A stretch of 64,000 bases of DNA from an uncultured Ignavibacteriaceae bacterium (GTDB lineage Bacteria > Bacteroidota > Ignavibacteria > UBA10030), in contig CAYYOV010000002.1 of assembly GCA_964473365.1 (NCBI GenBank), positions 97,576-161,575 of the forward strand. Reading direction: 5' to 3'. The notes beneath the pieces were generated by a model, which saw nothing but the letters and a program-made list of their open reading frames with translations, did no database searches and was not told where the DNA came from. Below, in pieces: positions 3,499 through 20,514 of the stretch. Position numbers and translations under genes: made by a program. The first letter of the stretch is position 1. The number at the start of each line of letters is the position of its first letter.

Positions 3499-6400
3499 AT
3501 GATAGGTGGTTCCCTCGGGATCTGCGTAGGAGCGTCAACGGTCTCATTTGTTCGGATGGCCGTCGACGGCTCGCTGGTCGAAGAGAAGTGCTGTTCAGTC
3601 GCGCACAACGCGGACCCGAAGGCCGTCATTCGCACCTACCTTGCGGAGCATCCTTCAGATGGTCTCTCGGTGGTCGTCACGGGACGGCGGCTTCGCCATT
3701 TGGTGGAGGCGCGGACCGTCTCCGAGCCAGAGGCTGTTGAGAAGGCGTTCCGTTCGCTCGGTCTTGCCGGCCAGTATCATGCACTGGCTAGTTTGGGGGG
3801 AGAGACGTTTCTCGTCTATTGCATGGATGACAACGGCAATATCGTCCAGGTGCTTTCGGGGAACAAGTGCGCATCTGGTACCGGTGAATTCTTCCTGCAG
3901 CAAATCAGGCGGATGAACCTCTCCGTCGAAGAGGCCGCCGCGATGGCAGAAGGGCAGACACCCTACGGCGTATCCGGGCGCTGCAGCGTCTTCTGCAAGA
4001 GCGATTGCACACATGCACTGAACAAAGGGGTCTCCAAGCCGACCGTCGTAGCGGGATTGTGTCGTATGATCGCGGCCAAGATCATCGAGCTCCTGGCCAA
4101 GCAACCGTCGACCCACGTTGCGGTCATTGGCGGCGTATCGATGAACGGCAGCGTATTGCGCTTCATCCGCGAACAGTATCCGGCCCTCACAGTGGTCCCT
4201 CATGCAACGTGCTTCGAGGCATATGGGGCAGCCCTCATTGGCCTTGAGCGGCATGCCGCCTTCGATGCGGAGCGGATGTTCAAGCACGGCGCCCACCGTT
4301 TTTCCTTCCATCCCCCGATCGAGTGCGGCAGGTCACGAGTGATCTTCAAGGAGATCGAGCGGGCTCAGCCCGAGCCGTTCGATGAGTGTCTTCTTGGACT
4401 TGATGTCGGATCGACGACGACAAAGGCCGTGCTCCTTCGCCGCCGGGACACCGCGCTCCTCGCTTCGGCATACCTCCGCACGAACGGAAGCCCGGTGCAA
4501 GCCTCCCTCGACTGCTATGCGGCGATCAGGTCACAGGTCACGACACCGATCCGCATCACAGGCCTTGGGACCACAGGTTCCGGACGTCATATCGCCGGGC
4601 TTCACGCGCTGACCAAAGGGGTGATCAACGAGATCATCGCCCACGCCGTCGCGGCAGCGTATTTCGACCCCGATGTAGACACGATCTTCGAGATCGGGGG
4701 ACAGGATGCGAAGTACACGTATCTGACGAACGGTGTGGCAAGCGACTATGCGATGAACGAAGCATGTTCGGCGGGAACGGGTTCGTTCCTGGAGGAGGCG
4801 GCGCGGGAATCCCTTTCGATCGATTATCGTGATATCGCCGAGATCGCGCTCCGTGCTGAGCGACCCCCGAATTTCAACGATCAGTGCGCTGCGTTCATCT
4901 CGAGTGATATCAAGACCGCTGCACAGGAAGGCATCTCGCAGGACGACGTGGTTGCCGGGTTGGTGTACTCCATCTGCCTCAACTATGTGAACAGGGTCAA
5001 GGGCAATCGTTCGGTAGGCGACCGGATCTTCATGCAAGGCGGCGTCTGCTACAACCGTGCGGTTCCGATGGCCATGGCGACCCTCATCAATAAAGAGATC
5101 GTCGTTCCGCCCGAGCCCGGATTGATGGGTGCCTTCGGCGTCGCGCTCGAGGTCCGCCGACGCCTCGACCTAGGTCTGATGGAGCCTCAGACGTTCGACT
5201 TGGAAGAACTGATGCAGAGGACCTTTTCCTACGGGAAATCCTTCGTCTGCGCCGGGGGCGAGGAGAAATGCGACCGGAAGTGCCCCATCAGCATCATCGA
5301 GGTAGAGGAAAAGAAGTATCCGTTCGGAGGAGCCTGCAACCGATTCTATGACCAACGGCTCAAGGAGAAGAAGCGCTCTTCGGGCAAAGACTACGTGCAC
5401 CTTCGGGAGGAGATGGTCTTCCGAACCTTTGCCGACGGTACGCCCGAACGACCCAACGGAAAGACGGTCGGAATTCTCAAGTCCTTCTCGACGAACGTCC
5501 TCTATCCGCTGTTTCACGGGTTCTTCACCCGCCTTGGGTTCCGCGTCGTCCTCGCAAACCAGGTCGACCCGCGTGGGTTGGAGAAGATGAACTCCTCATT
5601 CTGTTTTCCAGTTGAGCTTTCGCACGGAATGTTCGAAAACCTGCTCCGTCAGAATGTCGACCTGATCTTCCTCCCCCATATACAGGAGATGGAGGCAGCG
5701 GCTGACCAGTCGTACCACCGGCTGTGTGTGTTCGCTCAGGCTGAACCGTACTACTTGCAGAACGCGTTTCGCGACAAGGCCCTGCCTCCCGTCTTGTCCC
5801 CCGTTATCAACTTTGCCCGCGGCATCGATGAAGTGGAAAAGACATTCACCTCCATGGCGAAGGAATTGGGCGTCTCAGCGGGAGATGCGCGGGAGGCTTT
5901 TCGACGTGGATACGCACGCTACGCGGAGATGCGGGCTGCATTCAAGGAACTCGGCCGCGAGGCCCTTGAGGAGGTCGCGAGCGACCGGCACCGGTTCGGC
6001 ATCATCCTCTTCGGACGTCCGTATAATACGTTCGCGAGCGAAGCGAACCTTGGTATCCCGCACAAGATCGCAACGAAGGACCTTGTCGTCATTCCGCACG
6101 ATCTCCTTCCGTCCGACCATCTCCCCAGCTACGAGAACATGTACTGGGCCAATGGTCAGCAGATCATTCGAGGAACCAGGTTCGTCAAGCAGCACCCGAA
6201 GCTGTTCGGCGTCTTCGTAACCAACTTCTCCTGCGGGCCCGATTCCTTCATCGTCTCCTATTTCCGACGGCTCATGGGTTCGAAACCATCGCTGACGTTG
6301 GAGCTCGACAGCCACTCGGCTGACGTCGGGATCAATACGCGAATCGAGGCTGCTCTGGATATCATGTCCAACTACATGGAGCTTTCGAGGCGCGGAATGA

Positions 6401-7821
6401 TACGGGAGGCCAAGCCGGCCTCGCACGCACTCCAGGTCTTTGAAACTGCTGATGGTATCTCCGTACAAGGCCAGGACGGCCAGGTCTCAGATCTTCGGTC
6501 CGGTGACACTGAGGTCATCATGCCGTCCGTCGGGCATTTTGGTGCTTCTGCGCTGGCAGCGGGCCTGCGGTCCGCCGGCATCCCGACGATCGCGATGCCC
6601 ATACCGACGGCGACGACCCTGAAAGAAGGGAGAGGGCATTCGACGTGCAAGGAGTGCCTCCCATACATCCTCACGACGGGCCAGATGGTCGAACATCTGG
6701 CGAAGAAACAAGCGAACGGTGACAACCGTAGGTCGCTGTTCTTCATGCCGGGAGGATGCGGCCCCTGTCGGCAGGGACAGTACAACGTGAAAATGAAGGA
6801 TGTGATCGATGAGAAGGGATACCGGAATGCCGGAGTTCTGGCACTCCGGGAAGAATCGTCGTACGGAGGTTTGGGTGGGGACTTCTTCCGAAAGTCATGG
6901 GTGGGACTCCTTGCATCGGACTTTGTGGCCGACATTGAAAACGCGTTGAAGGTGCTGGCTGACCGGCCCGCGGAGGCGTTGGAGGTTGTGAACGCCGCCT
7001 GGAAGACGGTGGAGTGCCAGATCGAAAAGGGAACGATCGATTCGATCTACGAAGCCCTTGAGCAAATGACGGAGGAGGTGCTGAAGATTCCGCTGCGCAC
7101 ACGGCCTGAAGATGCAAAGACTGTGTCGCTCATCGGAGAGATCTACGTCCGGCGAGAAGAGTTTTCCGCGCACGAATTGATGGAGATGCTCATCTCCAAC
7201 GGATTCGTCGTCCGCACGACACCAGTTGCGGAGTTCGTCTACTACACGAACTACCTGGGCGCCATCAACGGTGCCCATCGGAACACCTGGAAAGAGCGCC
7301 TCGGTCTTCGGCTCAAGAATGCCTATCAGTGGCGCACAGAACGAAGGATGCGCAAGATCCTCTCCAGGACCGGCATGGTGGGGGAGGAGATGCTGGACAT
7401 TCGAAAGACCATTCGCCATGCCACCCACCTCCTCTCCGATGATCTGATCGGTGAAGCCGTGCTCACCGTTGGCACGGCCATGCGAGAGATCCTCGAATCG
7501 GCCTCGGGAATTGTCTCCATCGGTCCGTTTGCTTGCATGCCGGGACGGCTTGCGGAGGCAATCCTGGTCAAAGAGATGACCATCGAAGGCAAGCGCCGCA
7601 GCAACGGGTCACGCGCTCATACCTATCCACACGGTGTGACAACGTTGCCGTACTTGCACGTCGAAACGGATGGGAACACCTTCCCGCAAATCACCCGGTC
7701 GAAGATCGAGATCTTCATGCTGCAGGCTGATAAACTGCACCGTCAAATGATGGAGCATCGGCGTCGAACGAATGGCCGCGCGCATGTCGAGGCCCGTGCC
7801 ATTGCTGCCCTTGCACCATAG
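3499..7821 (+). CDS. Double BcrAD/BadFG-type ATPase fused to a DUF2229/2-hydroxyacyl-CoA-dehydratase-like region ('CoA-substrate-specific enzyme activase' family)
   Basis: Two acetate/sugar-kinase-fold activase modules: GICVGASTVSF...SGNKCASGTGEFF...GRCSVFCKSDC and GLDVGSTTTKAVLL...MNEACSAGTGSFLEEAA...NDQCAAFISSDI. About 800 further residues resemble the C-terminal part of ~1400-aa activase fusion proteins. Preferred start is ATG 3499 (GGGAGG 4 nt upstream); the track ORF starts at 3433. Confidence 0.8.
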   Translation: MIGGSLGICVGASTVSFVRMAVDGSLVEEKCCSVAHNADPKAVIRTYLAEHPSDGLSVVVTGRRLRHLVEARTVSEPEAVEKAFRSLGLAGQYHALASLGGETFLVYCMDDNGNIVQVLSGNKCASGTGEFFLQQIRRMNLSVEEAAAMAEGQTPYGVSGRCSVFCKSDCTHALNKGVSKPTVVAGLCRMIAAKIIELLAKQPSTHVAVIGGVSMNGSVLRFIREQYPALTVVPHATCFEAYGAALIGLERHAAFDAERMFKHGAHRFSFHPPIECGRSRVIFKEIERAQPEPFDECLLGLDVGSTTTKAVLLRRRDTALLASAYLRTNGSPVQASLDCYAAIRSQVTTPIRITGLGTTGSGRHIAGLHALTKGVINEIIAHAVAAAYFDPDVDTIFEIGGQDAKYTYLTNGVASDYAMNEACSAGTGSFLEEAARESLSIDYRDIAEIALRAERPPNFNDQCAAFISSDIKTAAQEGISQDDVVAGLVYSICLNYVNRVKGNRSVGDRIFMQGGVCYNRAVPMAMATLINKEIVVPPEPGLMGAFGVALEVRRRLDLGLMEPQTFDLEELMQRTFSYGKSFVCAGGEEKCDRKCPISIIEVEEKKYPFGGACNRFYDQRLKEKKRSSGKDYVHLREEMVFRTFADGTPERPNGKTVGILKSFSTNVLYPLFHGFFTRLGFRVVLANQVDPRGLEKMNSSFCFPVELSHGMFENLLRQNVDLIFLPHIQEMEAAADQSYHRLCVFAQAEPYYLQNAFRDKALPPVLSPVINFARGIDEVEKTFTSMAKELGVSAGDAREAFRRGYARYAEMRAAFKELGREALEEVASDRHRFGIILFGRPYNTFASEANLGIPHKIATKDLVVIPHDLLPSDHLPSYENMYWANGQQIIRGTRFVKQHPKLFGVFVTNFSCGPDSFIVSYFRRLMGSKPSLTLELDSHSADVGINTRIEAALDIMSNYMELSRRGMIREAKPASHALQVFETADGISVQGQDGQVSDLRSGDTEVIMPSVGHFGASALAAGLRSAGIPTIAMPIPTATTLKEGRGHSTCKECLPYILTTGQMVEHLAKKQANGDNRRSLFFMPGGCGPCRQGQYNVKMKDVIDEKGYRNAGVLALREESSYGGLGGDFFRKSWVGLLASDFVADIENALKVLADRPAEALEVVNAAWKTVECQIEKGTIDSIYEALEQMTEEVLKIPLRTRPEDAKTVSLIGEIYVRREEFSAHELMEMLISNGFVVRTTPVAEFVYYTNYLGAINGAHRNTWKERLGLRLKNAYQWRTERRMRKILSRTGMVGEEMLDIRKTIRHATHLLSDDLIGEAVLTVGTAMREILESASGIVSIGPFACMPGRLAEAILVKEMTIEGKRRSNGSRAHTYPHGVTTLPYLHVETDGNTFPQITRSKIEIFMLQADKLHRQMMEHRRRTNGRAHVEARAIAALAP

Positions 7822-7985
7822 GGCAGGACCCTTCATCTCCGTGGAGGATGTCAACCCCACGCGTTTCCCCGCAGCGACCTTTGGAGGTTCGAATCCCTTC
7901 GGTCACGCGTGCTGTGGATGGGCGATGTGACCCGGTTACCTTTCCGACCAATCCGATTGACCGGCCAATAGTGTCCGACGCGATC

Positions 7986-8555
7986 ATGCCGATCAGGTCC
8001 ATCGTCCCTTCACGGCCTGCAAAGAACCTCGGAATTGCCCTTGTGTGTGTCCTGGTCCACCTGATGCCGCTTCGACCACAGGAGGCAGCCGAGCAGGTTC
8101 GACCCATCTTCTGGTTTCAGGTCGGAGGCGATCCCGGGATCTCGATGCCTGCCTTCAGCGGGGAAGCGGGTGCATACGTCTGCCCGGTCAGTGCATGTGT
8201 GGTCGGAATTCGTATCACCGGGACGGCGCATCCGGGGGATGACCTGCCCAAGGATCTGTCGACCAAAGATCTCATGGTCGGGTATCAGGCCCAAACGGGC
8301 ATGGGCGCGCTCACGGTGTCTGCTGGCGTCAGTGCCATTGCGTCCACAAGGTGGGAGGTCACGGGTGTCTTCCTGTCCCCAGGCTATACGGCGACGAAGG
8401 TTGAAGAAACAGGCGTCGGCGTGCCGCTGGAGCTTGCTCTTTCGCTCCGTCCATTTCGGTTCCTCGGCATCGGGATCAGGGCCTTCAAGGTGTTCAACCG
8501 CTTCCAGACCTATGAGGGCGTTCACGGTGTGGTGCAATTCGGCATCGTCCGCTGA
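7986..8555 (+). CDS. Hypothetical protein, possibly a small outer-membrane beta-barrel
   Basis: Track ORF is 7848..8555. Internal Met at 7986 gives a signal-peptide-like N-terminus (MPIRSIVPSRPAKNLGIALVCVLVHL). The C-terminal half has alternating hydrophobic strands (GVPLELALSLRPFRFLGIGIRAFKVF...GVVQFGIVR). No family recognised. The antisense ORF 8010..8537 looks like noise. Confidence 0.3.
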   Translation: MPIRSIVPSRPAKNLGIALVCVLVHLMPLRPQEAAEQVRPIFWFQVGGDPGISMPAFSGEAGAYVCPVSACVVGIRITGTAHPGDDLPKDLSTKDLMVGYQAQTGMGALTVSAGVSAIASTRWEVTGVFLSPGYTATKVEETGVGVPLELALSLRPFRFLGIGIRAFKVFNRFQTYEGVHGVVQFGIVR

Positions 8556-8782: not shown

Positions 8783-8856
8783 GGGCCCTTAGCTCAGCTG
8801 GTTAGAGCGGCGGACTCATAATCCGTTGGTCGCAGGTTCAAGTCCTGCAGGGCCCA
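8783..8856 (+). tRNA. tRNA with CAT anticodon; strongly resembles the lysidine-dependent tRNA-Ile2 (E. coli ileX type), could alternatively be elongator tRNA-Met
   Basis: Cloverleaf read by hand. The 7-bp acceptor stem is GGGCCCT/AGGGCCC. The D arm is AGCTCAGCTGGTTAGAGC. The anticodon stem is GCGGA/TCCGT with loop CTCATAA (anticodon CAT). The T arm is GGTTCAAGTCC, and the discriminator is A at 8856. 3' CCA is not encoded (next bases are CTCC). The sequence is near-identical in the D arm, anticodon loop and T arm to my recollection of E. coli ileX. Confidence 0.9.
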
Positions 8857-9109: not shown

Positions 9110-10480
9110 ATGCCCGAATTTCGTGTGGAAGGTCTGACTCCTTCCGGCAAGGCCATTTCCGGCGTGATCAACGCTGATAATAAGAAACTGGCCAAGAAAC
9201 GCGCCGAAGAGATGGCCAGGGAAAAGAAGTTCAAGATTACGGCCGTCCACGAGCGTGTGTCATTCCTCTATCGTGTCCAGAAGGGGAAGGACAAACCGAT
9301 CGATGGTGAGCAAAAGGCCTTTACGCCCGACGAGGTGCGCATTGCCCTCGAGAAAATGGGCTACAAGGTCCAGTATGTTCGCAAAAAGCTCTTCGGCAAC
9401 AAGCTCAAACCGGCCCCCCCTGTCGAAGTGATCTCCTTCGTCCGAATCAGCACCGACCTGATGCGACAGAAGCTGCCATTCAACGAGGTCATGCAGCTTC
9501 TGATCAACGACATCCCAAATCCGATCCTGCGCGATTGTCTCAAGGAAATTAATCTCGAACTGAAGCAGGGAAAGGACTCAGAAAAGGTCTTCCTCAAGCA
9601 CTCAGTCGTCCTCGGTAAGTTTACTGCGAACATGCTCGGCCTCGCCTCGAAGAGCGGCAACATGGTGGAGATCTATGAGAGCACGGCCAAGTTTCTCGAG
9701 CGCAACGCTCAGTTCAAGAAGTCCGTGCGACAAGCCCTGATCATGCCGTTGGTCACCTTGTTCGTTCTGTTCCTTGCGGTCATGTTCTATGTTGCCTATA
9801 TCTTCCCCGCAACGGCGGAGATGTTCGTGAAGTTCAAGATCGAGCTGCCGCCGATGACGAAGGCGACGCTTCAGTTCAGCAACTGGCTCATGGACAACGC
9901 CCTTGTCGTGAGCCTCGCGTTCATCATCCCCATGGTTGCCGCGGCCCGCTTCTTTGCGACGGAGAAGGGCCAGTTCATGCTCGACCAATATATGCTCAAG
10001 GTGCCGGTCGTCGGGGCGTTGTTCCACAAGACCGCGATCGAGATCTTTTGCCGCGTCTTCTATGCGCTGTACAGCGGTTCGGGCGAGAATATCGAGGTCA
10101 TCCGGATGGCGTCCGAAGCATGCGGCAATAAATACATGGACCAACGGATCAGAACGATCGCGATCCCGCTCATGCTGGAGAAAGGGAAGAGTCTCACCGA
10201 GGCATTCCAGGCCAGCGGTGTTTTCACGGAGACGGCCATCTCCCGTTTGAGTTCCGGCGCCGAGACCGGAACGGTCAAGAATACTGCGATCCAGCTGGCC
10301 GAATACTATGAGAAGGAAACCACGTATCGCCTGGCGAACGTGGTACAGCTGATCGAGTTGTCCGTGCAGATGGTCATCATGATCGTCCTGACGGCCCTGA
10401 CGCTCGTCTCGTCGGAGACGGCGACGGTAAAGCCGAAGGCGCCCGGCGGGTTCCTGTCATTGTTCGCCGGATGGTTCTGA
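9110..10480 (+). CDS. pilC: Type IV pilus / T2SS platform protein (GspF/PilC family)
   Basis: 456 aa with two T2SS-F-type repeats and three hydrophobic segments (LIMPLVTLFVLFLAVMFYVAYIF, ALVVSLAFIIPMVAAARFF, VQMVIMIVLTALTLV). Typical GspF strings are present (LGLASKSGNMVEIYESTAKFLE; LSSGAETGTVKNTAIQLAEYYE). Confidence 0.85.
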   Translation: MPEFRVEGLTPSGKAISGVINADNKKLAKKRAEEMAREKKFKITAVHERVSFLYRVQKGKDKPIDGEQKAFTPDEVRIALEKMGYKVQYVRKKLFGNKLKPAPPVEVISFVRISTDLMRQKLPFNEVMQLLINDIPNPILRDCLKEINLELKQGKDSEKVFLKHSVVLGKFTANMLGLASKSGNMVEIYESTAKFLERNAQFKKSVRQALIMPLVTLFVLFLAVMFYVAYIFPATAEMFVKFKIELPPMTKATLQFSNWLMDNALVVSLAFIIPMVAAARFFATEKGQFMLDQYMLKVPVVGALFHKTAIEIFCRVFYALYSGSGENIEVIRMASEACGNKYMDQRIRTIAIPLMLEKGKSLTEAFQASGVFTETAISRLSSGAETGTVKNTAIQLAEYYEKETTYRLANVVQLIELSVQMVIMIVLTALTLVSSETATVKPKAPGGFLSLFAGWF

Positions 10481-10512: not shown

Positions 10513-12306
10513 ATGCCAGAGATCGACATTACTGATAAGATCGGCTATACACTCCTGAAGAAGGGCATCATCGATTTCGAGACCCTCGAGAAATCGTTGA
10601 AGCTGAAGGACTCCGAGGAGAACAAGAAGAACCGGAAGAACCTCGGCCAGATCCTCGTCTCGGAGTTCGGCGCCGACCACGACGCCGTGTTCCGCGAAGT
10701 GGCGAATCTCTACGCCTTCCGCGAGATCTTCCTGAACGACGAAAAGATCGACGAGGCACGTATCGCCTTCGTCAAGAAGTTCGTCGACGCCCTGTCCGAT
10801 CAGCAGCGCGAGATGATGACGGCCGCGAAGATGCTGCCGTTCAAGTGGGACGAGCGACAAACGGACAAGCTGATCATCGTTGCCGCAGACCCGACCGACC
10901 GGAACCTGCCGGTGGTCGCCCGATCGTTCAACGTCAAGAAATACGAGATCTGCTACGTCCGTCTGAAGGACCTGCAGAACCTTCTCGAGAAGGTCGCCCC
11001 GAAGCAGAACGAGTTCCTGAAGATGCTCGATTCGAGCGAGACGATCGAAGAAGGCTCGATGAGCAAGGACGACGTCGAGGTCGACGAAGACGCGCTCGAA
11101 GCCGAGATCAACAAGAGCGCCCTCGTCAACCTCTTCGAAGGTTGCATCGTGGAGGCGGTCCGTCGGGACGTGTCCGATATTCACATCGTCGCGGCCGAAG
11201 GGAACAAGACCAACTTCATGTTCCGCGTCGACGGCAACCTGCAGGTCTGGCATTGCCAGGAGAATACGCTCCCCGAGGCCGTCATGGCGGTCATTAAGGA
11301 CCGCACGAAGAACGTGGACCGGTTCGAGCGTGAGATGTCGCAGGACGGATTCATCCAACGCGTCATCGACGGCCACCAGCTCCGGTTCCGCGTGTCGATC
11401 ATGCCGATCGTCACGACGGAATTCAAGCACAAATTCGAGAGCGTCGTCATCCGCGTTCTGGACGACCGGAAGGTCATCACGGACCTGAACAAGCTCGGGT
11501 TGCAGGGGCCCGCGAAGAACTTCTTCTACAAGGCCATTGGCAAGCCGCAAGGGATCGTCATCCTGACGGGCCCGACAGGGTCCGGCAAGTCGACCACGCT
11601 GATCGCCGCACTCTACCAGGTGATCGACCCGACCGTCAACGTTCTGACGATCGAAGAGCCCGTCGAGTACATCATCAAGGGCGCGCGACAGCTCAAGATC
11701 GGCCCGAAGATGGGGTTCGAACAGGCCATCCGCGGTATTCTGCGTCACGACCCCGACATCGTGCTCGTCGGTGAAATGCGCGATAAGGTCACGGCTGAGA
11801 CGGCCATCAAACTGGCCAACACAGGTCACTTGGTCTTCTCCACCCTGCACACGAACGATGCTCCCAGCGCGGTGGCACGTCTGTACAAGATGGGCATCGA
11901 GCCGTTCCTGATCGCATACGCCATCAACATCATCGTCGCCCAGCGGCTCATCCGTACGCTCTGCAAGGTCTGTAAGTCTCCCATCGATGAGGATGAGAAG
12001 GGAGACCTGCTGAAGTTCGGTTTCACGGAAGAGGACCTGGCCCAGCACACCTTCTACAAACCGGTCGGTTGCGACAAGTGTAACGGCGGATGGAAGGGGC
12101 GCGCGGCCATCCACGAGGCGCTCTTCTTCAGCAAGGCAATCAAGGACATCGTCCTGAATGCCGGCGACAAGGTCGATGAGAATGCCATCCGCGATCAAGC
12201 GTCGAAGGACGGCATGTGGACGCTCCGACGTTCTGGTATGGAGCGGATGAAGGAGGGGATGACAGCCCTTGAAGAGGTCATCGCGTCGACGGTCGAGGAC
12301 GAGTGA
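10513..12306 (+). CDS. pilB: Type IV pilus assembly ATPase (GspE/PilB family)
   Basis: 597 aa. N-terminal GSPII_E_N-like region (LGQILVSEFGADHDAVFREVANLYAF). Walker A GPTGSGKSTT, Asp box LTIEEPVEY, Walker B DPDIVLVGEMRD, His box GHLVFSTLHTNDA. Tetracysteine motif CKVCKSP...CDKCNGGWKGR. Confidence 0.92.
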   Translation: MPEIDITDKIGYTLLKKGIIDFETLEKSLKLKDSEENKKNRKNLGQILVSEFGADHDAVFREVANLYAFREIFLNDEKIDEARIAFVKKFVDALSDQQREMMTAAKMLPFKWDERQTDKLIIVAADPTDRNLPVVARSFNVKKYEICYVRLKDLQNLLEKVAPKQNEFLKMLDSSETIEEGSMSKDDVEVDEDALEAEINKSALVNLFEGCIVEAVRRDVSDIHIVAAEGNKTNFMFRVDGNLQVWHCQENTLPEAVMAVIKDRTKNVDRFEREMSQDGFIQRVIDGHQLRFRVSIMPIVTTEFKHKFESVVIRVLDDRKVITDLNKLGLQGPAKNFFYKAIGKPQGIVILTGPTGSGKSTTLIAALYQVIDPTVNVLTIEEPVEYIIKGARQLKIGPKMGFEQAIRGILRHDPDIVLVGEMRDKVTAETAIKLANTGHLVFSTLHTNDAPSAVARLYKMGIEPFLIAYAINIIVAQRLIRTLCKVCKSPIDEDEKGDLLKFGFTEEDLAQHTFYKPVGCDKCNGGWKGRAAIHEALFFSKAIKDIVLNAGDKVDENAIRDQASKDGMWTLRRSGMERMKEGMTALEEVIASTVEDE

Positions 12307-12335: not shown

Positions 12336-12365
12336 GCAACGGGCGCTTCTTGGAGCGCCCGTTGC
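12336..12365. terminator. Bidirectional stem-loop between convergent pilB and the pilin-like operon
   Basis: Perfect 12-bp stem GCAACGGGCGCT (12336..12347) / AGCGCCCGTTGC (12354..12365) with a 6-nt loop. The flanking T/A tracts are weak. Confidence 0.55.
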
Positions 12366-12402: not shown

Positions 12403-13428
12403 CTATTCATACCATTCCACCACGCTGTAATACAACAACCTTCCGATCCGCTTTGCCTGGTCGAGAGCCTCGCTGCTATATTTCACCTTTCCTCCCGAAC
12501 CAGTACCCTTCAAGGTTAGGTGGACTTCCTCGCCCGCGACCATCACGCCGCCGACGATTTGTGGGTTTCCGAGAGCTTCGAAACTAATCACATTCTCCTC
12601 CCCGTACGCCATCACAAGGCCATACCATGTGAAGGAACCCGAGAACTTCACGTTCCCGTTGATGGCCAGGATCCCCCAGCCAACGACGCTGCCGGTGAAC
12701 CGGATTGAAAAGTTTGTGTCGGCCGTGCCGACGTTGCATACCACGATCACGGGGTTTGCGGCGCTTCCAAAGACCCAATCGCCCGCCACGTTGCCCGGTG
12801 TGTTGAATGTGTAGTGAGCACTCTGTTCATACTCCGGGATGAATGATGCGGGGCTGAGGGCGGTGGGGTCGGTCCCTACTTTGATCGAACCGGTGAGGTA
12901 CGGGGCCACTGAGGCATCGTTGATGATCTCGGCTGAATCTGATGGATTGCTTACTGTGATGGCCGGAAGATCCCCGCTGCCAGTCAATGCCGACCCGTCC
13001 GCGGTCCAGTTGCGGCCGTCCACGGAAGCCTTTCCGCTGATGTCCATTTCGGCGTCGTTGCTGATCATGCCGATGGCCGACTTCGACGTCGGGAACGGTT
13101 TCGGCGTAAAGAGCAGCTTGACACGCATGACGTAGGTCGATTCTGCGTAGACACCGCGTGAGACGATCCGGAGTGTATCCCCGACGGACGTTGCGGTGAC
13201 GGCGTAGGAGCCGCCTTGAAAGCTTGCGGTCGTCGGGGGCGTGATACCCCGGTCAATATACCTGAGGTGTCGGTTGACGGCGAGTCGGGCCATGTTCCGC
13301 GCAAACGAGTACTTGTAGTAGCCGACCTGGGCGCCGGTGAGCGTTTCGGCCGACTCTCGAAGGCTGCCGCCGATGAACCCGAAGGCGACCGCCATCCCCA
13401 TCACCAGAAACATCGCAGCTCGTCCCAT
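12403..13428 (-). CDS. PilX-N-like pilus-associated protein (putative minor pilin / tip protein)
   Basis: 341 aa. The N-terminus MGRAAMFLVMGMAVAFGFIGGSL resembles the PilX_N hydrophobic helix. The C-terminal part has a Gly-rich beta pattern (GWGILAINGNVKFSGSFTWYGLVMAYGEENV...IVGGVMVAG) seen in PilX-like proteins. No Gly-1/Glu+5 prepilin motif. Confidence 0.45.
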   Translation of the reverse strand: MGRAAMFLVMGMAVAFGFIGGSLRESAETLTGAQVGYYKYSFARNMARLAVNRHLRYIDRGITPPTTASFQGGSYAVTATSVGDTLRIVSRGVYAESTYVMRVKLLFTPKPFPTSKSAIGMISNDAEMDISGKASVDGRNWTADGSALTGSGDLPAITVSNPSDSAEIINDASVAPYLTGSIKVGTDPTALSPASFIPEYEQSAHYTFNTPGNVAGDWVFGSAANPVIVVCNVGTADTNFSIRFTGSVVGWGILAINGNVKFSGSFTWYGLVMAYGEENVISFEALGNPQIVGGVMVAGEEVHLTLKGTGSGGKVKYSSEALDQAKRIGRLLYYSVVEWYE

Positions 13429-13437
13429 GATTGGCCT

Positions 13438-14040
13438 CTACTTGGACAGATTGAGTTGATTGAGATTACGCGGGAAGATCAGCTTCTGCCATGTCACAAG
13501 CGAATACGTCGTATCACCCTGGGGCGTGAGGACCGGCTCAGGACTTGCTACCATGAAATAGACATTGATCCCGCGGATCTTAGCAAGTGTATCGACCTGG
13601 TTCGTCGGAACACCGATCCGAACGTTGTTTGAATCGAAGTACGAGATCCGAAAGTCGATCAAGCCGAAATTCTGTCGCAGGGCTGTTCCCGCCTGTATAC
13701 GGAACAGCGGAAAGTCGGTCGGGTTTGGCGTGTTCGCGGATTGGGCGATGGTGCCTGTCTGATACCGGTAGAGTGCCGTGTCCATATTGTTCGACACATC
13801 CGCCCGATAGTCGATGCGGCGCTCCGCTGCGTAAAAGATCCGCTGACCGCGTACGTGGTGGCCGATCTTCAGAAAATCGAATTCCACCTGGCGCGCGAGT
13901 TCAACGGCATTCCCCTGGGTGATGACCGTGAACGTGTTTTGATAGAGAGTGGCGTTGATGTTCGTCTGTACCCGGGCGACTGCCAGGACGAGGACACCAA
14001 AGATGATCGCGGAGGCGATATAATCCAGCATTGCCGACAT
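13438..14040 (-). CDS. Pilin-like protein with N-terminal hydrophobic helix (no prepilin leader)
   Basis: 200 aa. The N-terminus is MSAMLDYIASAIIFGVLVLAVARV. An in-frame TAG five codons upstream of the ATG excludes a longer leader. It is 9 nt from the next gene in the operon. No family recognised. Confidence 0.4.
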   Translation of the reverse strand: MSAMLDYIASAIIFGVLVLAVARVQTNINATLYQNTFTVITQGNAVELARQVEFDFLKIGHHVRGQRIFYAAERRIDYRADVSNNMDTALYRYQTGTIAQSANTPNPTDFPLFRIQAGTALRQNFGLIDFRISYFDSNNVRIGVPTNQVDTLAKIRGINVYFMVASPEPVLTPQGDTTYSLVTWQKLIFPRNLNQLNLSK

Positions 14041-14112
14041 GAAGAACCTCGCCTAGGGCCGTTCAGGATGGTCGATCGTGATCACGTAATCCGGGACTTT
14101 GCCAGACAGACA

Positions 14113-14664
14113 CTAATAGTACTTTCGGTAGACGGCGATATCATGCATCCGGTAGGGAATGACGTTCCCCGCGTCGTCCTTGATCATCGAAAAGTTCTGC
14201 ACGTTGACCATGATCCGCTTGTGCCACGTCTGGCTGGTTTGCACGGTCAAGTTGTCCTCGTGGACATACTCGATCGAATCCCGGACGATGAACCATCCGA
14301 GCCGTGGATTCCACACCCAACGGACGTATCCGTGATAGTCGTCGACGTCGTCAAATCGCCATTGGGAACGGAAGACTCCTGTTCGGGATGAATCGGGTGG
14401 AGTGATCGTCTCGCCACCGTCTGGCCCGAACGAGCCGCGGGATGTCATCCCAGCATTCGTGAATACGCGTCGATTGTTTGTCGTGTTTTCGTCGAAGCTC
14501 TTCGTGAGCACTTCGTCGAGCATTGACTGAGCGTACGACAAGGCGTTCAGGTTCGCCTCCATTTCAAGGCCCATGTTCGAGGTCTGAATGATCGTGGCGT
14601 TGACCGCTAGCGTCAGTGTCGAGAGGAGCGTGAACGCGCCGATCGTGAGCATCGCTTGTCCCAT
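14113..14664 (-). CDS. Pilin-like protein with N-terminal hydrophobic helix (no prepilin leader)
   Basis: 183 aa. The N-terminus is MGQAMLTIGAFTLLSTLTLAV, and GGAG lies ~12 nt upstream of the ATG. It is the first gene of the three-gene minus-strand operon. No family recognised. Confidence 0.4.
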   Translation of the reverse strand: MGQAMLTIGAFTLLSTLTLAVNATIIQTSNMGLEMEANLNALSYAQSMLDEVLTKSFDENTTNNRRVFTNAGMTSRGSFGPDGGETITPPDSSRTGVFRSQWRFDDVDDYHGYVRWVWNPRLGWFIVRDSIEYVHEDNLTVQTSQTWHKRIMVNVQNFSMIKDDAGNVIPYRMHDIAVYRKYY

Positions 14665-14970
14665 GGTGAACGTACTCCTGCTGGAATACCCATTCGTTGA
14701 ATGACGGGGTTGCTACCTCCGACCCAGAACACGTTAGCGGTTCCGGGTCCCCGGCCCTATGTGCCATATCACAGTTTCGTACGCGGCTATGACCGATCTT
14801 CGCAAGCCGTGAGACGACCCACCGGGCCACAACGGGTGGCGTGAGGCACAACTCTTTGTTGACTCCGGCCGGAGCGAAGGAGGTTTTCGACCTTGGCCTG
14901 AAATCCCGTTGACCGGTTATCTATTGATGCAACAATCCGTCCACAAACGCAAAAGGCAAATCAGCCGAAT

Positions 14971-14984
14971 TTCGAAGCTTCGAA
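14971..14984. promoter_or_regulatory. Perfect 14-bp palindrome TTCGAAGCTTCGAA in the divergent pil control region (candidate operator)
   Basis: The sequence equals its own reverse complement. It sits in the 584-bp non-coding gap between the minus-strand pilin-like operon and pilT, ~175 nt upstream of the pilT candidate promoter. Confidence 0.35.
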
Positions 14985-15158
14985 TGGTGAAGCCTGTATC
15001 GATTTGGTCCTGGGTGCTCAATTATGGGTAATAATGACACACCAGACCAAACGCCCCCACTGGCTGGCGCCAAGAATGTACGAAAACCTGCGGCCGAAAC
15101 ACAATATGATGTTGTAGCAGAAGATGGTGGAAAGAGCGCAACAAAGACTTTAAGCAAG

Positions 15159-15187
15159 TTGCAATTTACTGTGGCCTTCCGTATACT
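15159..15187 (+). promoter_or_regulatory. Candidate sigma70-type promoter (TTGCAA-N17-TATACT) for pilT and downstream genes
   Basis: TTGCAA at 15159..15164, a 17-nt spacer, then TATACT at 15182..15187. It lies ~60 nt upstream of ATG 15249. Confidence 0.5.
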
Positions 15188-15248
15188 CTACCGACTTAGT
15201 GGAGAAGAGACGGCTCGTACGAACAATACCTAAGACTCCAGAGTCCGC

Positions 15249-16556
15249 ATGCCCCCAACTTCGCCACCGCCAGCGCCAATGTCCAGACCGGGCAATGCTG
15301 CTGCTGCCGAGTTGTCTCCCGTTATTCTTGAAGGCCACAAGGTCCTGAAGGAAGTGGCGGCCACGTTGCCGCAGACCGTCACTGGCCTTGAGCGTCAGAT
15401 GATGATTGGCGATACCTTGTCGCGCGTCGATGAGACGTCGAAGATGAAGCTTCTGACGCTGATGAACCATCTTCTGTCAAAGATGTTCACGATCAATGCG
15501 TCAGACATCGACATGGGAGGCTATGGGTCCCAAGGATTTATTTGGTACCGGATCTATGGGTCAAAGAAGCCTGATCCGACGCTCGGGAAATACAGTCCCG
15601 ACGAGATGAATGTTCTCGTCCAGAGCGTTATTGGAGACCGTCAGCGCACGTTCCTCTACGAGAATCGGAACCTCGACTTCTCTCATATGCTGTACCTCGA
15701 GGGGGGTGAGTTCCGACGGTTCCGAGCCGACGCCTACTTCGACCTGGATCAGCTTGCGCTGAACATGAGGGCCATCAACAATACTGTCCGGCCCTACAAA
15801 TTGCTCGAGCTCCATCCGAGCGTGACGAAGATGGTCAGTCTGGCGCAGACGAAGGAAGGGCTCTGTCTTGTCACGGGCATCACAGGCTCCGGCAAGAGCT
15901 CGACGCTGGACGCCATCATCGATGCGAACAACCATTCCGTCGACGGCCACATCGTCATCATTGCGTCGCCGATCGAGTACGTGCACCGCTCCGATCGATG
16001 CATCATTCGTCACCGGGAGGTCGGGCGAGACGTCTTGTCGTTCAAGGAAGGGGCCATTCAGGCCCTGCGGCAGGATCCTGACATCATCATGCTCGGCGAA
16101 TTGCGCGATCCTGAGACAATCATGACGGCGCTCGAGATCACGGACTCGGGCCATAAGGTCTTCTCGACGCTTCACACCGCCTCGGCCGTGGAAAGTATCG
16201 ACCGGATCATCGGTGAAATTCCCCCCATCGAGCAGGAGCGCGTCCGGAATCGCCTGGGCGAAACGTTGCGGGCCGTGATCTCCCAAAAGCTCGTTCCCAG
16301 CCTCGACGGCAAGCGCGTCCTGGCGAAGGAGATCATGATCGCCACGCCGTCGGTCAGGGCCGCGATCAAGAACAACAACACGACCGAGATCTATCAGATG
16401 ATCTCTGAAGGTCTCGAGCAGGGGATGAATACGATGGAGCAGGATCTGAAACGCCTCTATCTGGCGAAGAAGATCTCGCTCGAGAACGCGATCAACTACG
16501 CCAACAACAAGCGTCGTCTACAGCAGTTGCTGCAGATCACTCCGTCGGACAACTAG
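15249..16556 (+). CDS. pilT: Twitching-motility (retraction) ATPase, PilT/PilU family, with N-terminal extension
   Basis: 435 aa. Walker A GITGSGKSST, Asp box IIASPIEYVH, Walker B DPDIIMLGELRD, His box GHKVFSTLHTASA, and a degenerate AIRNLIRE-type helix (SVRAAIKNNNTTEIYQMI). About 70-80 extra N-terminal residues begin with a Pro/Ala-rich stretch (MPPTSPPPAPMSRPGNAAAAE). Confidence 0.85.
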   Translation: MPPTSPPPAPMSRPGNAAAAELSPVILEGHKVLKEVAATLPQTVTGLERQMMIGDTLSRVDETSKMKLLTLMNHLLSKMFTINASDIDMGGYGSQGFIWYRIYGSKKPDPTLGKYSPDEMNVLVQSVIGDRQRTFLYENRNLDFSHMLYLEGGEFRRFRADAYFDLDQLALNMRAINNTVRPYKLLELHPSVTKMVSLAQTKEGLCLVTGITGSGKSSTLDAIIDANNHSVDGHIVIIASPIEYVHRSDRCIIRHREVGRDVLSFKEGAIQALRQDPDIIMLGELRDPETIMTALEITDSGHKVFSTLHTASAVESIDRIIGEIPPIEQERVRNRLGETLRAVISQKLVPSLDGKRVLAKEIMIATPSVRAAIKNNNTTEIYQMISEGLEQGMNTMEQDLKRLYLAKKISLENAINYANNKRRLQQLLQITPSDN

Positions 16557-16598: not shown

Positions 16599-18290
16599 AT
16601 GCCGCACATCGTTACCCCGCCGCTGACAGGCAGGCGGGTTGCTCCAGCGATCCACCACGTCGGAGACACCGGACCCCGTATGACTATCCAAAAAGGTGAT
16701 GGAAAGACCGCCGTCTCGCTGTTCGTCGACGGTCTGTCGCTGAAGTTCATTCAGCTCTCCTTGAAGGGTGGGAAGGTCGTTCTGCGCGATTTCAAGACCG
16801 TCGCGCTCGTGAAGAAGTTCGAGGAGAAGGAGCTCGCCGCCGAGAACGAGGAGTCGGGGGGGTTCGGCGAGACTCCCGCGCCTGGCGACGCCTTTGGAGG
16901 CGGCGCGGCAACACTCGATGGGGGACAAGAAGAGGAGGCGAACTCCAATTCTACTGTCCTCTTGGGTCTGCTATCCGATCTTGGGGCGAGATTTTCGCTC
17001 AACTATGCGCTCTCCGAGCCTGCAGTCACCTACCAGGAATTCGAATCGGACTTTGGCCTGAAGGGGACGGCGCTCCGCAAGCGGATCATCGAAGAACTGG
17101 CAACGTCTCGTGCCACACCGCCGGTGATGGACTCATTCGCGGTGATCCCACACGCCAACGGCGGGATCCTGACGGTGATCCGCGAGGACGGGCTGAACCT
17201 GTACGACCTGCTGACCGAGATCAAGAGTTTCCTCGGCAACCGGGCACCGAACCTGGAGTACATCGACAGCGCTGACGTGGCCCTCATTGAGATGATCCGG
17301 ACGGGCTACGAGGTCCAGGACGAAGAGGTGACGGTCGTTGTGTACGTCGGCCACGATTTCAGCCGCATCATCTTCATGCAGGGCAAGGAATATCTCCACT
17401 TCGCCCCGATCATCAGCGAAGGGCACGAATCGCCGAATCTGGAGAACACGCTCTACTCGCGCATCCTGCTCGAACAGGACAATATCGCCCTCGCCCGGAT
17501 GGACCGCATTATCCTGGCGGGTGAGGCGCACAAGGTGAACCTGCTCGAATCTTTGGCTCCGCAATTCTCCTCCGCACAGGTCGAGTACGCGCATATCCCC
17601 GACGTCGACCTGACACCGTTCGACGGATCGGTGGGCGAGGCGCTGTCGGAATATGCCATTCCGATCATGAATGCCTGGAAGGCGCTGGAGCCCAAGCGGA
17701 AGACCTTCTATTCTACGAACCTGATCCCGGGCGCGATCATCGAGGCCCAGAAGGTCTTCAAGCTGGCCTGGCACGGCTGGGTTACGGCGCTGGGCATCAT
17801 CGCGGCGATCGTTTTCTTTTACAATGCGATCCTCGAGCAGAGCGTCGATATTCGCCGGGCGAAAGAAGAACTCGCGCAGAAGCAGCTTCGCCTGGCCGAC
17901 CTCGACCTGTTCAGGTCCCGAAAGGACGTGCTCCAAGGCGATATCAACCGGTACATCAACGCGACGACGACGTACGACTCGATCGCGCCAGGCGGTGACC
18001 GCTGGAGCCGGATCCTCCACTATGTCGCAACGAGCGTCGAGGATCTGAACTCCATGTGGATCTACAATATGCGGCCCGATCCACAGAACAAATCGATCAT
18101 CATCCTCTCCGGTCGCTCGATCTACCGAACGCGGATTCCGCGCATCGCCAGCATCTTCGAGAAGGCCACACTGCGCGAGGTGCGGACGACAACGGTCCGG
18201 AACAAGATCGTGTATGAATTCGACATCGTCATCGAGCGGGTCGACAAACATGATATTCCCGAGCGGCCGTACGACGCCGCCCGGCGATAA
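16599..18290 (+). CDS. Apparent PilM-PilN fusion (actin-like cytoplasmic domain + TM helix + periplasmic coiled-coil domain)
   Basis: 563 aa. PilM-like strings: VSLFVDGLSLKFIQL, VVVYVGHDFSRIIFMQG, RIILAGEAHKVNLLESL. A single TM helix follows (WVTALGIIAAIVFFYNAIL, ~17769..17835), then a coiled-coil/PilN-like tail. An alternative start at ATG 16680 would give a more typical PilM N-terminus. Confidence 0.6.
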   Translation: MPHIVTPPLTGRRVAPAIHHVGDTGPRMTIQKGDGKTAVSLFVDGLSLKFIQLSLKGGKVVLRDFKTVALVKKFEEKELAAENEESGGFGETPAPGDAFGGGAATLDGGQEEEANSNSTVLLGLLSDLGARFSLNYALSEPAVTYQEFESDFGLKGTALRKRIIEELATSRATPPVMDSFAVIPHANGGILTVIREDGLNLYDLLTEIKSFLGNRAPNLEYIDSADVALIEMIRTGYEVQDEEVTVVVYVGHDFSRIIFMQGKEYLHFAPIISEGHESPNLENTLYSRILLEQDNIALARMDRIILAGEAHKVNLLESLAPQFSSAQVEYAHIPDVDLTPFDGSVGEALSEYAIPIMNAWKALEPKRKTFYSTNLIPGAIIEAQKVFKLAWHGWVTALGIIAAIVFFYNAILEQSVDIRRAKEELAQKQLRLADLDLFRSRKDVLQGDINRYINATTTYDSIAPGGDRWSRILHYVATSVEDLNSMWIYNMRPDPQNKSIIILSGRSIYRTRIPRIASIFEKATLREVRTTTVRNKIVYEFDIVIERVDKHDIPERPYDAARR

Positions 18291-18307: not shown

Positions 18308-19204
18308 GTGACCTATAAGATCCGCAATACGATCGCACTTGCCGTGGTCCTGCTGCTCTTCAGCGGTGGCGGTGCTTTCTGGTACTACTACTGGCAGCCG
18401 CGCGAGCTGAAAGCGCTCGTCAAGCAGATCCAGGCGATCGACAAGGAGCTCGACAATCTTCCGATCCTGACGGAAGAGGTCCAGCGGCTGACGGTACAAT
18501 TCCAGGACGTGAAGCGCCGGTACGATTCCCGGAGCAAAGAGATCCCCGAGTTCGACGTCTCCTCACAAACTTACGGCTATATGAGCCGGGGCATCGACGT
18601 TGCCGGGTTCCTGAAGTTTGATATGAAGTTTCTCGGAACGCAGGAAAGCCCCGGTTACGGATTCAACGCCTACAGGCTCGAGCAAGGGGAGGCCCAGTTC
18701 GACAACCTGTACCGCTTCGTCTACTTCCTGGAGAACGGCCGGCGGCTCTACAAGATCTCGACGCTCGCGCTTGAGTACAAGGATGCGGTCGATTCTGAGA
18801 CGAAGGAAACGAAGAAATGGATCGCATTCGACATGGAGCTCCATGCGTACTACGTGCGGGGCATTCCGGAGCTCGGTTCGTCGCTTGCGGCCCGCAGTTT
18901 GACCGTGGTACCGGCGCCATTTGACCCGTTCGATCCGCTCATCGTGCCGACGATCGCGGCGGAGGCGCCAATGGGCGAACTGAACCCGCGCAACGTCGAG
19001 ATCAAGGCGGTCCTGCCGGGCAAAGCATTTGTGTTGTATGAGAACGAGCTTATCGTCCTGCAGCTCGGCGATCGCGTATGGCGCGGCGCCGTCAGCGCGA
19101 TCGACCCGCGGACCAGCTCGGTGGAATTCACGCTCAACGAAGGTGGCGTGATCACGAAGGTGTCCAAGCAGATCCAATTTGACCGTCGAAGGAGGCTCCG
19201 GTGA
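18308..19204 (+). CDS. Apparent PilO-PilP fusion
   Basis: 298 aa. An N-terminal TM helix (IALAVVLLLFSGGGAFWYYYW), a coiled coil and an alpha/beta region are PilO-like. The C-terminus has a PFDPFDP motif and a beta-domain string (VEIKAVLPGKAFVLYENELIVLQLGDRVWRGAVSAIDP) that is PilP-like. Its stop overlaps the secretin GTG start (GTGA). Confidence 0.5.
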   Translation: MTYKIRNTIALAVVLLLFSGGGAFWYYYWQPRELKALVKQIQAIDKELDNLPILTEEVQRLTVQFQDVKRRYDSRSKEIPEFDVSSQTYGYMSRGIDVAGFLKFDMKFLGTQESPGYGFNAYRLEQGEAQFDNLYRFVYFLENGRRLYKISTLALEYKDAVDSETKETKKWIAFDMELHAYYVRGIPELGSSLAARSLTVVPAPFDPFDPLIVPTIAAEAPMGELNPRNVEIKAVLPGKAFVLYENELIVLQLGDRVWRGAVSAIDPRTSSVEFTLNEGGVITKVSKQIQFDRRRRLR

Positions 19205-20514
19205 ACCTCAAACGTGGAATGACCCTGTTGCTCATCGCCGTGCTGATGTCGGTGTCGGCGTTGGCCCAAACCGAGTCCCAGCTGCGACGCGCAGCCCAAG
19301 GGAAATCGGGAGCGGCTCCCGACGAGATCGTCTCGTTCCGTGCGGATGTACCGTATTCGCAGGCGATCAAATCGCTCGGAGATCTCTGGAAGACAAAGGG
19401 CGGGAAGATCGTCATCGACCGGTCGGGCACCAAAGAAGGGGACAAATCGATCGGCGTGAATATCGAGGCGATGTACTGGAAGGACGCCTTCGAGCTCATC
19501 CTGCGCTCGAACAAGCTCTGGTACAACCAGTATGAAGAGCACGTCGAAGTGGTTCCGATGGAGGAGGCCGGCAGGTCGGCCCAGGTTGACACGAAGACAG
19601 TCGAGCAGGCCAAGACGGGAGGCGCTCCTGTGACGACCCCCACAGCGAGCCAGATGCCGATGAACGAACTTCCGATGAAGGTCGACTCGGCCGAGTACTA
19701 CTTCAAGGATCGAGAGATCACGATCTCCAGCGTGTTCTTCGAGGTAGACCGGACAAAGCTGGCTCAGACCGGCATCGGCTTTTCCATCTTCCGGGGCAAA
19801 GGTCTCAACCTCGGCGTCGAGTTCAGCGGAGCGGACCGGATCACGACACCGATCCTCAATGCGACGGTCAGTCCGCGCGACAAGCGGCTGGCGGTGGACG
19901 TCGATGCGGCCCTACGCGTCTTCGAAAGCGAGCAGCTCGGCGAAGTGATCGCTCGTCCCCAGATCACGGTACGGAACGGCACATCGTCGAAGCTTCAGAG
20001 TGGCCAGAATTTTTCGGTGCAGTTGCGCGATTTTTCGGGCAACGTCGTCAACCAGTTCTACGAGACGGGCACGATCCTGACGGTCACGCCCAAGGTCTGG
20101 AAATTCCAAGAGAAGGAATTCATCAGCCTTAACTACAAGATCGAACGCAGCACGCTCCTCCCGTCAGCGACCACCATCCTGATCAACAAGACGGAGGCGA
20201 GCGGGACTCTCATGCTGCTGGACGGGGAAGAGGCGTACGTCGGTGGCCTGTACTCGACCGACGAATCGGTTACGCGCGAAGGTGTGCCGGTGCTCAAGGA
20301 CCTGCCGTGGTGGGTGCTCGGTCTGCGTTACTTGTTCGGCTTCGATGCAACCAGCTACAAGAAGAAGGAGCTCGTCGTCCTCATGCGCGCGCAGATGGTG
20401 CCGCTGCTCGAGGACCGGCTCAAGGCGGCCCCGGTGCAGCAGGGGTTGGACAACGTCCTGAAGGACATGAACCAGGACCTCCAGAAGCGGACGACACAAA
20501 AGAAGGTCCAGTAG
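19201..20514 (+). CDS. pilQ: Secretin (PilQ/GspD family), short form
   Basis: 437 aa. Signal peptide MNLKRGMTLLLIAVLMSVSALAQ. Secretin core strings ARPQITVRNGTSSKLQSGQNF, GTILTVTPKV and VPVLKDLPWWVLGLRYLFG. Only short N-terminal domains precede the secretin core. Confidence 0.8.
   Translation: MNLKRGMTLLLIAVLMSVSALAQTESQLRRAAQGKSGAAPDEIVSFRADVPYSQAIKSLGDLWKTKGGKIVIDRSGTKEGDKSIGVNIEAMYWKDAFELILRSNKLWYNQYEEHVEVVPMEEAGRSAQVDTKTVEQAKTGGAPVTTPTASQMPMNELPMKVDSAEYYFKDREITISSVFFEVDRTKLAQTGIGFSIFRGKGLNLGVEFSGADRITTPILNATVSPRDKRLAVDVDAALRVFESEQLGEVIARPQITVRNGTSSKLQSGQNFSVQLRDFSGNVVNQFYETGTILTVTPKVWKFQEKEFISLNYKIERSTLLPSATTILINKTEASGTLMLLDGEEAYVGGLYSTDESVTREGVPVLKDLPWWVLGLRYLFGFDATSYKKKELVVLMRAQMVPLLEDRLKAAPVQQGLDNVLKDMNQDLQKRTTQKKVQ

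Follow-up and report, generated by a model that had tools for sequence, protein, structure and literature searches.

Type IV filaments are defined by pilins with class III signal peptides and by the prepilin peptidase that removes these peptides, and tools such as PilFind and the Pfam model N_methyl rely on this signature. The cap pilins GspK and PilX lack the glutamate at position 5 (Glu5). The described systems closest to the genes considered here are minor-pilin operons, namely, GspI-GspJ-GspK of type II secretion (XcpV-XcpW-XcpX; PDB 3ci0 and 5bw0) and PilV-PilW-PilX of type IV pili, the latter with FimU and PilY1 and with a proposed priming role that ends at the tip (PMC7541494, PMC13759059). 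Here, we describe three adjacent genes, A, B, and C, in a stretch of 64,000 nucleotides from an uncultured Ignavibacteriaceae bacterium (GCA_964473365.1, contig CAYYOV010000002.1, positions 97,576 to 161,575 of the forward strand; hereafter, the window). We consider it likely that their products form the minor-pilin tip and priming complex of an Ignavibacteria type IV pilus.

The two precedents that bear most closely on the third of these proteins both concern cap subunits. In ComZ of Thermus thermophilus, a solenoid most closely related to the ice-binding protein FfIBP is inserted in a pilin domain that resembles GspK; ComZ is not a predicted PilD substrate, its hydrophobic helix spans residues 5 to 27, and it has been proposed to sit at the tip, bound to the neighboring minor pilin PilA2 (PMC6561018). 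A 2026 study described cyanobacterial PilX cap pilins that consist of a pilin domain plus a β-solenoid and proposed that solenoid-bearing PilX is a cap that replaces PilY1 (PMC13759059). Complexes of minor pilins that prime the filament and end at its tip, with a cap that bears a solenoid, are thus known; this locus differs from every described case in that class III leaders are missing from all members, and not just from the cap, and in that Glu5 is replaced by Asp or Gln. Our literature search found no paper describing such a leaderless trio.

The three genes lie on the minus strand between the plus-strand genes pilB and pilT of a type IV pilus-like cluster, in the order A (14113..14664, 183 amino acids), B (13438..14040, 200 amino acids), and C (12403..13428, 341 amino acids); we use the same letters for the genes and their products. 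The open reading frame (ORF) list and the sequence itself give gaps of 72 nt between A and B and 9 nt between B and C, in agreement with the first-pass annotation of this DNA. Each of the three ATG codons is preceded, at a distance of 7 to 11 nt, by a GGAG or GAGG motif. An in-frame TAG lies five codons upstream of the start of B, where it had also been seen on first reading, and another lies four codons upstream of the start of C, where it is the stop codon of B; longer leaders are therefore excluded for both proteins. Upstream of A, 16 codons free of ATG, GTG, and TTG are followed by TAG, which makes a longer leader unlikely for this protein as well, and in relatives in-frame stops lie 1 to 12 codons upstream of the start codons. 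The junction of B and C (13429-13440, minus strand) reads TAG AGG CCA ATC ATG, with GAGG between the stop and the start, a layout compatible with translational coupling.

We mapped the window proteins by tblastn onto 26 loci from a scan that used one genome per species and added five further loci by exact protein look-up (L001, L003, L030, L031, and L032). A, B, and C are real genes, and their order is identical in 26 of the 26 scanned loci and in the five added ones. The 79 homologs of C, at 37 to 100% identity, are all unnamed or "hypothetical" and, where named, belong to Ignavibacteria/Bacteroidota metagenome-assembled genomes. An exhaustive HMMER search with the alignment of A returned 1530 clusters (50% identity) at E ≤ 1e-3 and 734 at E ≤ 1e-10; all matches in the 1530 clusters start at residue 1, and the few named members of the family are hypothetical proteins of Ignavibacteriaceae.

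Structure prediction places two of the three proteins in the pilin superfamily, whose characteristic feature is an N-terminal helix of about 50 residues, hydrophobic in its first half, packed on an antiparallel β-sheet. The AlphaFold2 model of B, built from a 26-sequence alignment with a predicted local distance difference test (pLDDT) score of 85, has a single helix at residues 2 to 57 followed by a β-sheet, and a Foldseek search returned 5bw0_C as the sole significant PDB match (E value of 6.9e-4, probability of 1.00, template modeling [TM] score of 0.57 on the target, 179 columns). Entry 5bw0 shows the minor pseudopilins XcpV and XcpW of the Pseudomonas type II secretion system in complex, and we take its chain C to be the GspJ-type XcpW because, judged by length only, its 159 residues are too many for XcpV; a phmmer search of the PDB with Escherichia coli GspJ gave no match and thus did not confirm the identity of the chain. 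On this model, B is most likely a PilW/GspJ-like minor pilin, which revises the first-pass view that the 200-residue protein has no recognizable fold.

The model of C, from 33 sequences and with a pLDDT of 86, likewise has the pilin feature, with a helix at residues 3 to 59 and four strands between residues 67 and 109; a β-rich region with many invariant glycines (residues 119 to 317) and a last strand (residues 332 to 340) follow. The best Foldseek matches were three ComZ chains of 6qvi (E values of 4.9e-5 to 7.5e-4), followed by at least five ice-binding β-solenoids, and these are the relatives reported for the two domains of ComZ itself. The order of the strands in C fits an architecture in which a triangular β-solenoid like that of ice-binding proteins precedes the last strand, with global TM scores that are low. 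As modeled, C is most likely a cap minor pilin like ComZ or PilX with a β-solenoid-like domain, in keeping with the initial suggestion that the 341-residue protein resembles PilX-like tip proteins. For A, the hydrophobic start, an amphipathic stretch to about residue 60, and β-type repeats, together with its size and its place in the gene order, make it a candidate PilV/GspI-like minor pilin.

The series of sizes (183, 200, and 341 residues), together with the gene order, mirrors GspI-J-K and PilV-W-X. As in GspI-J-K, three consecutive genes encode a small, a medium, and a large protein, each with a long N-terminal hydrophobic helix, the middle one being the structural match to XcpW in 5bw0 and the last one, like GspK, lacking an acidic residue at position 5. 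The trio differs from GspI-J-K in having no detectable sequence similarity and no class III leader, from GspK in that the extra domain of C is a predicted β-solenoid where GspK has an α-helical insert, and from type II secretion in general in that the surrounding machine has PilT and resembles that of type IVa pili. With PilV-PilW-PilX it shares the logic of the operon, a role in priming that would end at the tip, and a distal PilX-like subunit without Glu5; unlike that system, it has no fourth member of the FimU/GspH type and no N_methyl signature, its leaders are reduced to 0 to 4 residues, and Gln (in A) or Asp (in B) occurs where Glu5 would be expected. No PilY1-like gene adjoins the trio here. 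ComZ is a precedent for a helix that begins close to the N terminus, but for the cap subunit only, since its partner pilins in Thermus carry normal prepilin leaders and all three partners here are without them. ComZ chains are also longer than C (about 500 to 520 versus 341 residues) and share no sequence similarity with it, and DNA binding is not indicated for C.

The N termini are the most unusual feature of the trio. Each protein starts with a hydrophobic segment, as had been noticed from the outset, and the best 19-residue windows begin at residues 3 to 8. Because at most 0 to 4 residues precede the helix in all three (MG-Q, M-S-A-M-L-D, and MG-R), none has a normal class III leader; no basic leader is present in A, B, or C, and a regular-expression search of the window and 29 loci found no motif like G-[FM]-T-L-[IL]-E. 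In A, which begins MGQAMLTIGAF in the window, the start conforms to M-x(0-3)-G-Q-x-M/F-L (MGQ, MNTGQ, MNSGQ, and MQTGQ); the Gln is kept throughout the wider family, in which A, I, M, S, or N often takes the place of the preceding Gly (MNGAQ, MNGIQ, MNSSQ, and MGNNQ), and there is no acidic residue near the N terminus. In B, M1 and D6 are invariant in 26 homologs within the pattern M-x(1-4)-hydrophobic-Asp. The Asp occupies position 5 to 8 of the precursor across members, which becomes position 5 after loss of Met1 in most, and a nonsignificant hhalign alignment pairs Asp6 in register with Glu5 of E. coli GspG (residue 14 there). No Gly is conserved in B. In C, the first two residues, M1 and G2, never vary, the third is R or K (R3 being conserved to at least 90%), and no acidic residue lies near the N terminus. 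A Gly directly precedes the helix in A and C.

Relatives therefore conserve G-Q in A, Asp in B, and MGR in C, and not the shared (G/S)xAM(L/F) start that had been read from the window proteins. The accompanying statement that none of the three has a leader with Gly-1 and Glu+5 stands insofar as class III leaders are absent, but it passes over the Gly before the helix of A and C and the acidic residue in the Glu5 register of B. Going by these sequences, the leaders of all three proteins are vestigial, and the proteins may undergo no processing, lose only the initiator Met, or be cleaved after Gly.

The trio is found between pilB and pilT in nine other genomes (L001, L004-L008, L011, L014, and L020), antiparallel to these genes as in the window except in L001, where it is co-directional. 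This linkage to the flanking ATPase genes and the predicted folds of B and C support the early proposal that the proteins are minor pilins or components of a priming complex. In the more distant relative L032, pilC, pilB, and pilT are contiguous, and the trio is divergent and lies upstream of two small pilin candidates, which are followed by pilC-B-T-MN-O-Q. The trio occupies different positions in different loci and is therefore a mobile, self-contained module, for which the interval between pilB and pilT is one of several sites and specific to certain lineages, so that the antisense insertion described in the first-pass annotation is real here but does not define the module.

Some genomes carry two copies of the trio or additional divergent paralogous sets (L008, L018, L024, and L027). 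The extra sets (L018:4401-8264 [−], L024:11100-15000 [−], L027:5934-7085 [+], and L008:11571-13523 [+]) are much more divergent, adjoin a standard trio, and encode A-like proteins of 166 to 182 residues, B-like proteins of 193 to 209 residues, and a C-like protein of 400 residues with a trace of DUF4900. This suggests several interchangeable tip sets per cell. In L003, genes for a histidine kinase (CHASE8-HAMP-HisKA_3) and for a response regulator of the GerE type (6146-8353, plus strand) lie directly upstream of a stand-alone trio, an arrangement that recalls the FimS-AlgR control of the Pseudomonas minor-pilin operon. In two other loci (L019:11251-12480 [−] and L025:3001-4722 [+]), the gene after the trio is not the main pilB but one for a divergent PilB-like ATPase, with 33% and 47% identity, respectively, to the PilB of the window, which hints at a second type IV filament system.

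Several observations weigh against an assignment of the trio to the pilus tip. In about 18 loci the three genes form an operon of their own, set among unrelated genes and far from any pil locus, so that linkage to pil genes is frequent but not obligatory. The structural evidence is uneven: it covers B and C, B has only the one significant match, and what relates C to ComZ is similarity in local 3Di states, the global TM scores being 0.15 to 0.22 and the root mean square deviation about 18 Å; because of these low scores we regard the ComZ match as good but not conclusive evidence. The topology expected of a pilin is also unclear for B under the positive-inside rule, since no basic residue precedes the helix and Arg23 follows it.

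Sequence profiles point the same way. The search for pilin families that had been proposed as a check found nothing: no Pfam or NCBIfam match links A, B, C, or the 85 aligned sequences to a pilin family, N_methyl included, and B in particular matches no GspJ or PilW model at E ≤ 1. Profile searches (hmmsearch) of PDB sequences with the three alignments returned nothing relevant, and hhalign comparisons with GspG, GspH, GspI, GspJ, and GspK of E. coli K-12 gave no significant match (a probability of 0.3% for B against GspJ). When the A, B, and C families were compared with one another and with the candidate major pilins described below, hhalign probabilities were low and only the N-terminal helix or the GQ motif aligned. 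C and 32 of its homologs do not match DUF7305 or DUF2572; a distant homolog of 384 residues from L032, which aligns with the C family at 98% hhalign probability, exceeds the cut-offs of both (30.1 versus 27 bits and 24.4 versus 23.8 bits, respectively). No paper on either domain was found in our literature search.

The machine genes around the trio are those of a compact pilus cluster on the plus strand. The platform gene pilC (9110..10480; Pfam T2SSF, 3.6e-29) and the assembly ATPase gene pilB (10513..12306; Pfam T2SSE, 1.7e-95) lie on one side of it, the product of the latter matching NCBIfam PilB at 4.4e-125, under the equivalog cut-off. On the other side, pilT (15249..16556) matches the PilT/PilU family at 3.3e-97, above the family cut-off; the match begins at residue 72, and the preceding approximately 70 residues form an extension that is Pro/Ala rich at its start. 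Two genes follow that we call pilM-N-like (16599..18290, 563 residues) and pilO-like (18308..19204, 298 residues) from their position only; neither has a Pfam or NCBIfam match, and both are 54 to 93% identical to their relatives. A short secretin gene, pilQ (19201..20514; Secretin, 2.7e-24), comes next, and the order pilT-pilMN-pilO-pilQ is kept in relatives. A gene for a large Ig-repeat lipoprotein, 1538 residues long and rich in repeats, lies after the secretin gene (20690-25306, plus strand). Homologs also lie downstream of pilQ in L005-L008 and L014, making it a conserved neighbor of the machine whose product may serve as an adhesin or as a substrate.

Between the convergent pilB and gene C, a hairpin with a perfect 12-bp GC-rich stem (12336..12365) bears out the bidirectional hairpin of the first-pass annotation. 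The surrounding 111-nt region folds with a z score of −3.7 relative to shuffled sequences, and the hairpin is probably a bidirectional terminator, one that a simple terminator scan missed because it has no T-run. The divergent intergenic region of 584 bp between gene A and pilT (14665..15248) contains no ORF with homologs and presumably holds the promoter of the trio; the σ70 promoter and terminator scan applied to the sequence uses a model that is uninformative for this phylum. An Rfam scan identified only a tRNA gene (8783-8856, plus strand; 74.9 bits) immediately upstream of pilC. The public runs that contain this stretch are DNA metagenomes only, and no RNA run was found.

Taking the trio to be a minor-pilin tip and priming complex, we hypothesize that the N-terminal helices of A, B, and C would form a bundle in the inner membrane, seated on the PilC platform, in which C is uppermost and the Asp of B pairs with the N terminus of a neighboring subunit. 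The complex would seed the PilB-driven polymerization of a major pilin encoded elsewhere in the genome and would then travel through PilQ at the tip of the fiber. There, the solenoid of C would cap the filament or act as an adhesin that binds a surface, in place of PilY1, and PilT would retract the fiber. Such a system would either need no prepilin peptidase, with at most the initiator Met being removed, or have a tiny leader cut after Gly.

Candidates for the major pilin come from three relatives, in which one or two genes immediately upstream of pilC encode pilin-sized proteins of 126 to 133 residues that start with MGQQQLL (L001:4569-4970 [+], L011:10957-11340 [−], and L032:8874-9263 and 9319-9699 [−]). 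These proteins have a hydrophobic helix, a conserved GGG loop, and no Glu5, and they have no Pfam match; from their sequence and location, they are candidate major pilins of this machine. No gene of this type is present in the 64-kb window, where the tRNA gene occupies the place of the candidates upstream of pilC, and the initial suggestion that the major subunit may be encoded elsewhere accords with this. Since the MGQQQLL proteins are encoded beside pilC, the same style of N terminus probably extends to the major subunit.

The sequence searched also yielded no prepilin peptidase. A phmmer search with E. coli GspO against the ORFs of the window and 32 Ignavibacteria loci, which together span 524 kb and contain about a dozen pil clusters, detected no A24-type peptidase in what is a weak, single-sequence test on partial genomes; a GspE control matched 25 ORFs in the same 524 kb. 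The Pfam gene tables of L001 and L032 contain no A24 peptidase, and we found no paper on a prepilin peptidase in Ignavibacteria. The genome of Melioribacter roseus was reported to contain pilT, pilQ, pilB, and pilC, with neither pilA nor pilD found (PMC3534657). The search of the 524 kb, the Pfam tables, and the M. roseus report fit a peptidase-independent system without proving one. We put forward tentatively, as a reading that we think somewhat more apt to fail than to hold, that the whole Ignavibacteria pilus is built from subunits translated in an essentially mature form, without class III leaders, a prepilin peptidase, or N-methylation, and that, as part of the same reading, Asp6 of B and the Gln of A and of the major pilin would serve in place of Glu5.

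The three proteins could instead be minor pilins with miniature leaders, cut after Gly (M-G|Q, M-N-T-G|Q, and M-G|R) by a PilD-type enzyme encoded elsewhere, and the new N terminus might then be modified, for example, by conversion of Gln to pyroglutamate. The residues before G-Q in A vary in number (0 to 3) and identity while G-Q itself is conserved, which is the classic pattern of a cleavage site, and Gly2 is invariant in C. Euryarchaeal pilins of the EppA type have Gln at +1 and likewise show a Gly-Gln junction before the helix, as in the A family and the MGQQQ candidates; archaeal pilins, however, have clear basic leaders of at least 10 residues and a dedicated peptidase, and the machine here is bacterial, with a PilQ secretin and PilT. 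To our knowledge, leaders of 1 to 4 uncharged residues have not been described for any substrate of a prepilin peptidase. In the wider A family the Gln often follows a residue other than Gly, B lacks a conserved Gly, and the 524 kb, the Pfam tables, and the reported lack of pilD in M. roseus offer no enzyme to do the cutting. On balance, we regard processing of this kind as possible but less likely than not.

Nor must pilin-like proteins be part of a filament. A, B, and C might be periplasmic components, either of the machine or of some other envelope structure, that are anchored by their signal sequences, remain in the inner membrane, and never enter a fiber, their pilin shape being ancestral or convergent, and the lack of both a class III signal and sequence homology to pilins would be expected of such anchors. 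The many operons that stand apart from pil genes and the several divergent paralogous sets of some genomes are also in line with this; minor-pilin operons away from machine genes are nonetheless common in known systems (PMC13759059). The predicted helix runs unbroken for about 55 residues from the membrane segment into the globular domain, as it does in pilins, and the structural matches are specifically to minor pilins or pseudopilins at filament tips, in addition to the likeness in sizes and gene order to GspI-J-K and PilV-W-X. We therefore consider a role as membrane anchors alone improbable.

If the trio does belong to a filament, that filament might be a short secretion pseudopilus, used in the manner of type II secretion rather than for adhesion or motility. 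In its predicted fold, B comes closest to a pseudopilin of type II secretion; downstream of the secretin gene, both here and in relatives, lies the large lipoprotein gene; and the so-called type II secretion system of Bacteroidetes branches within the type IVa pili (PMC6668835). The minor pilins of true pili in Thermus, though, also resemble type II pseudopilins most closely (PMC6561018), the cluster encodes a PilT-family retraction ATPase whose score lies above the family cut-off, and no genes of the GspC, GspL, or GspM type were seen, so that we find a pseudopilus improbable as well.

The approximately 20-residue hydrophobic stretch at the start of each protein could in principle be an ordinary Sec signal peptide, with soluble periplasmic or secreted mature proteins unrelated to a pilus, a scenario that the first-pass annotation named as refuting its proposal. 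We reject this reading as hardly credible because a basic n-region is missing from A and B, the hydrophobic stretch is not followed by a lipobox or a conserved AxA site, AlphaFold2 predicts one continuous helix (from residue 2 or 3 to residues 57 to 59) packed on the sheet in B and C, and the extreme N termini (G-Q, Asp, and MGR) are among the best-conserved parts of the proteins, which is unexpected for a signal peptide that is discarded.

With the trio read as a minor-pilin tip and priming complex, a widespread lineage would carry pilin-fold subunits that are invisible to tools of the PilFind and N_methyl type. The trio would supply "missing" subunits of the Ignavibacteria pilus, and three unannotated protein families gain a testable role. 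Should a peptidase act on leaders of 1 to 4 residues, the known substrate rules of such enzymes would be extended. If, instead, the whole pilus is assembled from subunits translated essentially mature, the rule that no type IV filament can do without an A24 peptidase would no longer hold, and the reported lack of pilA and pilD in Melioribacter roseus would be accounted for. The trio makes leader-free assembly of a type IV pilus testable in cultured relatives such as Melioribacter and Ignavibacterium.

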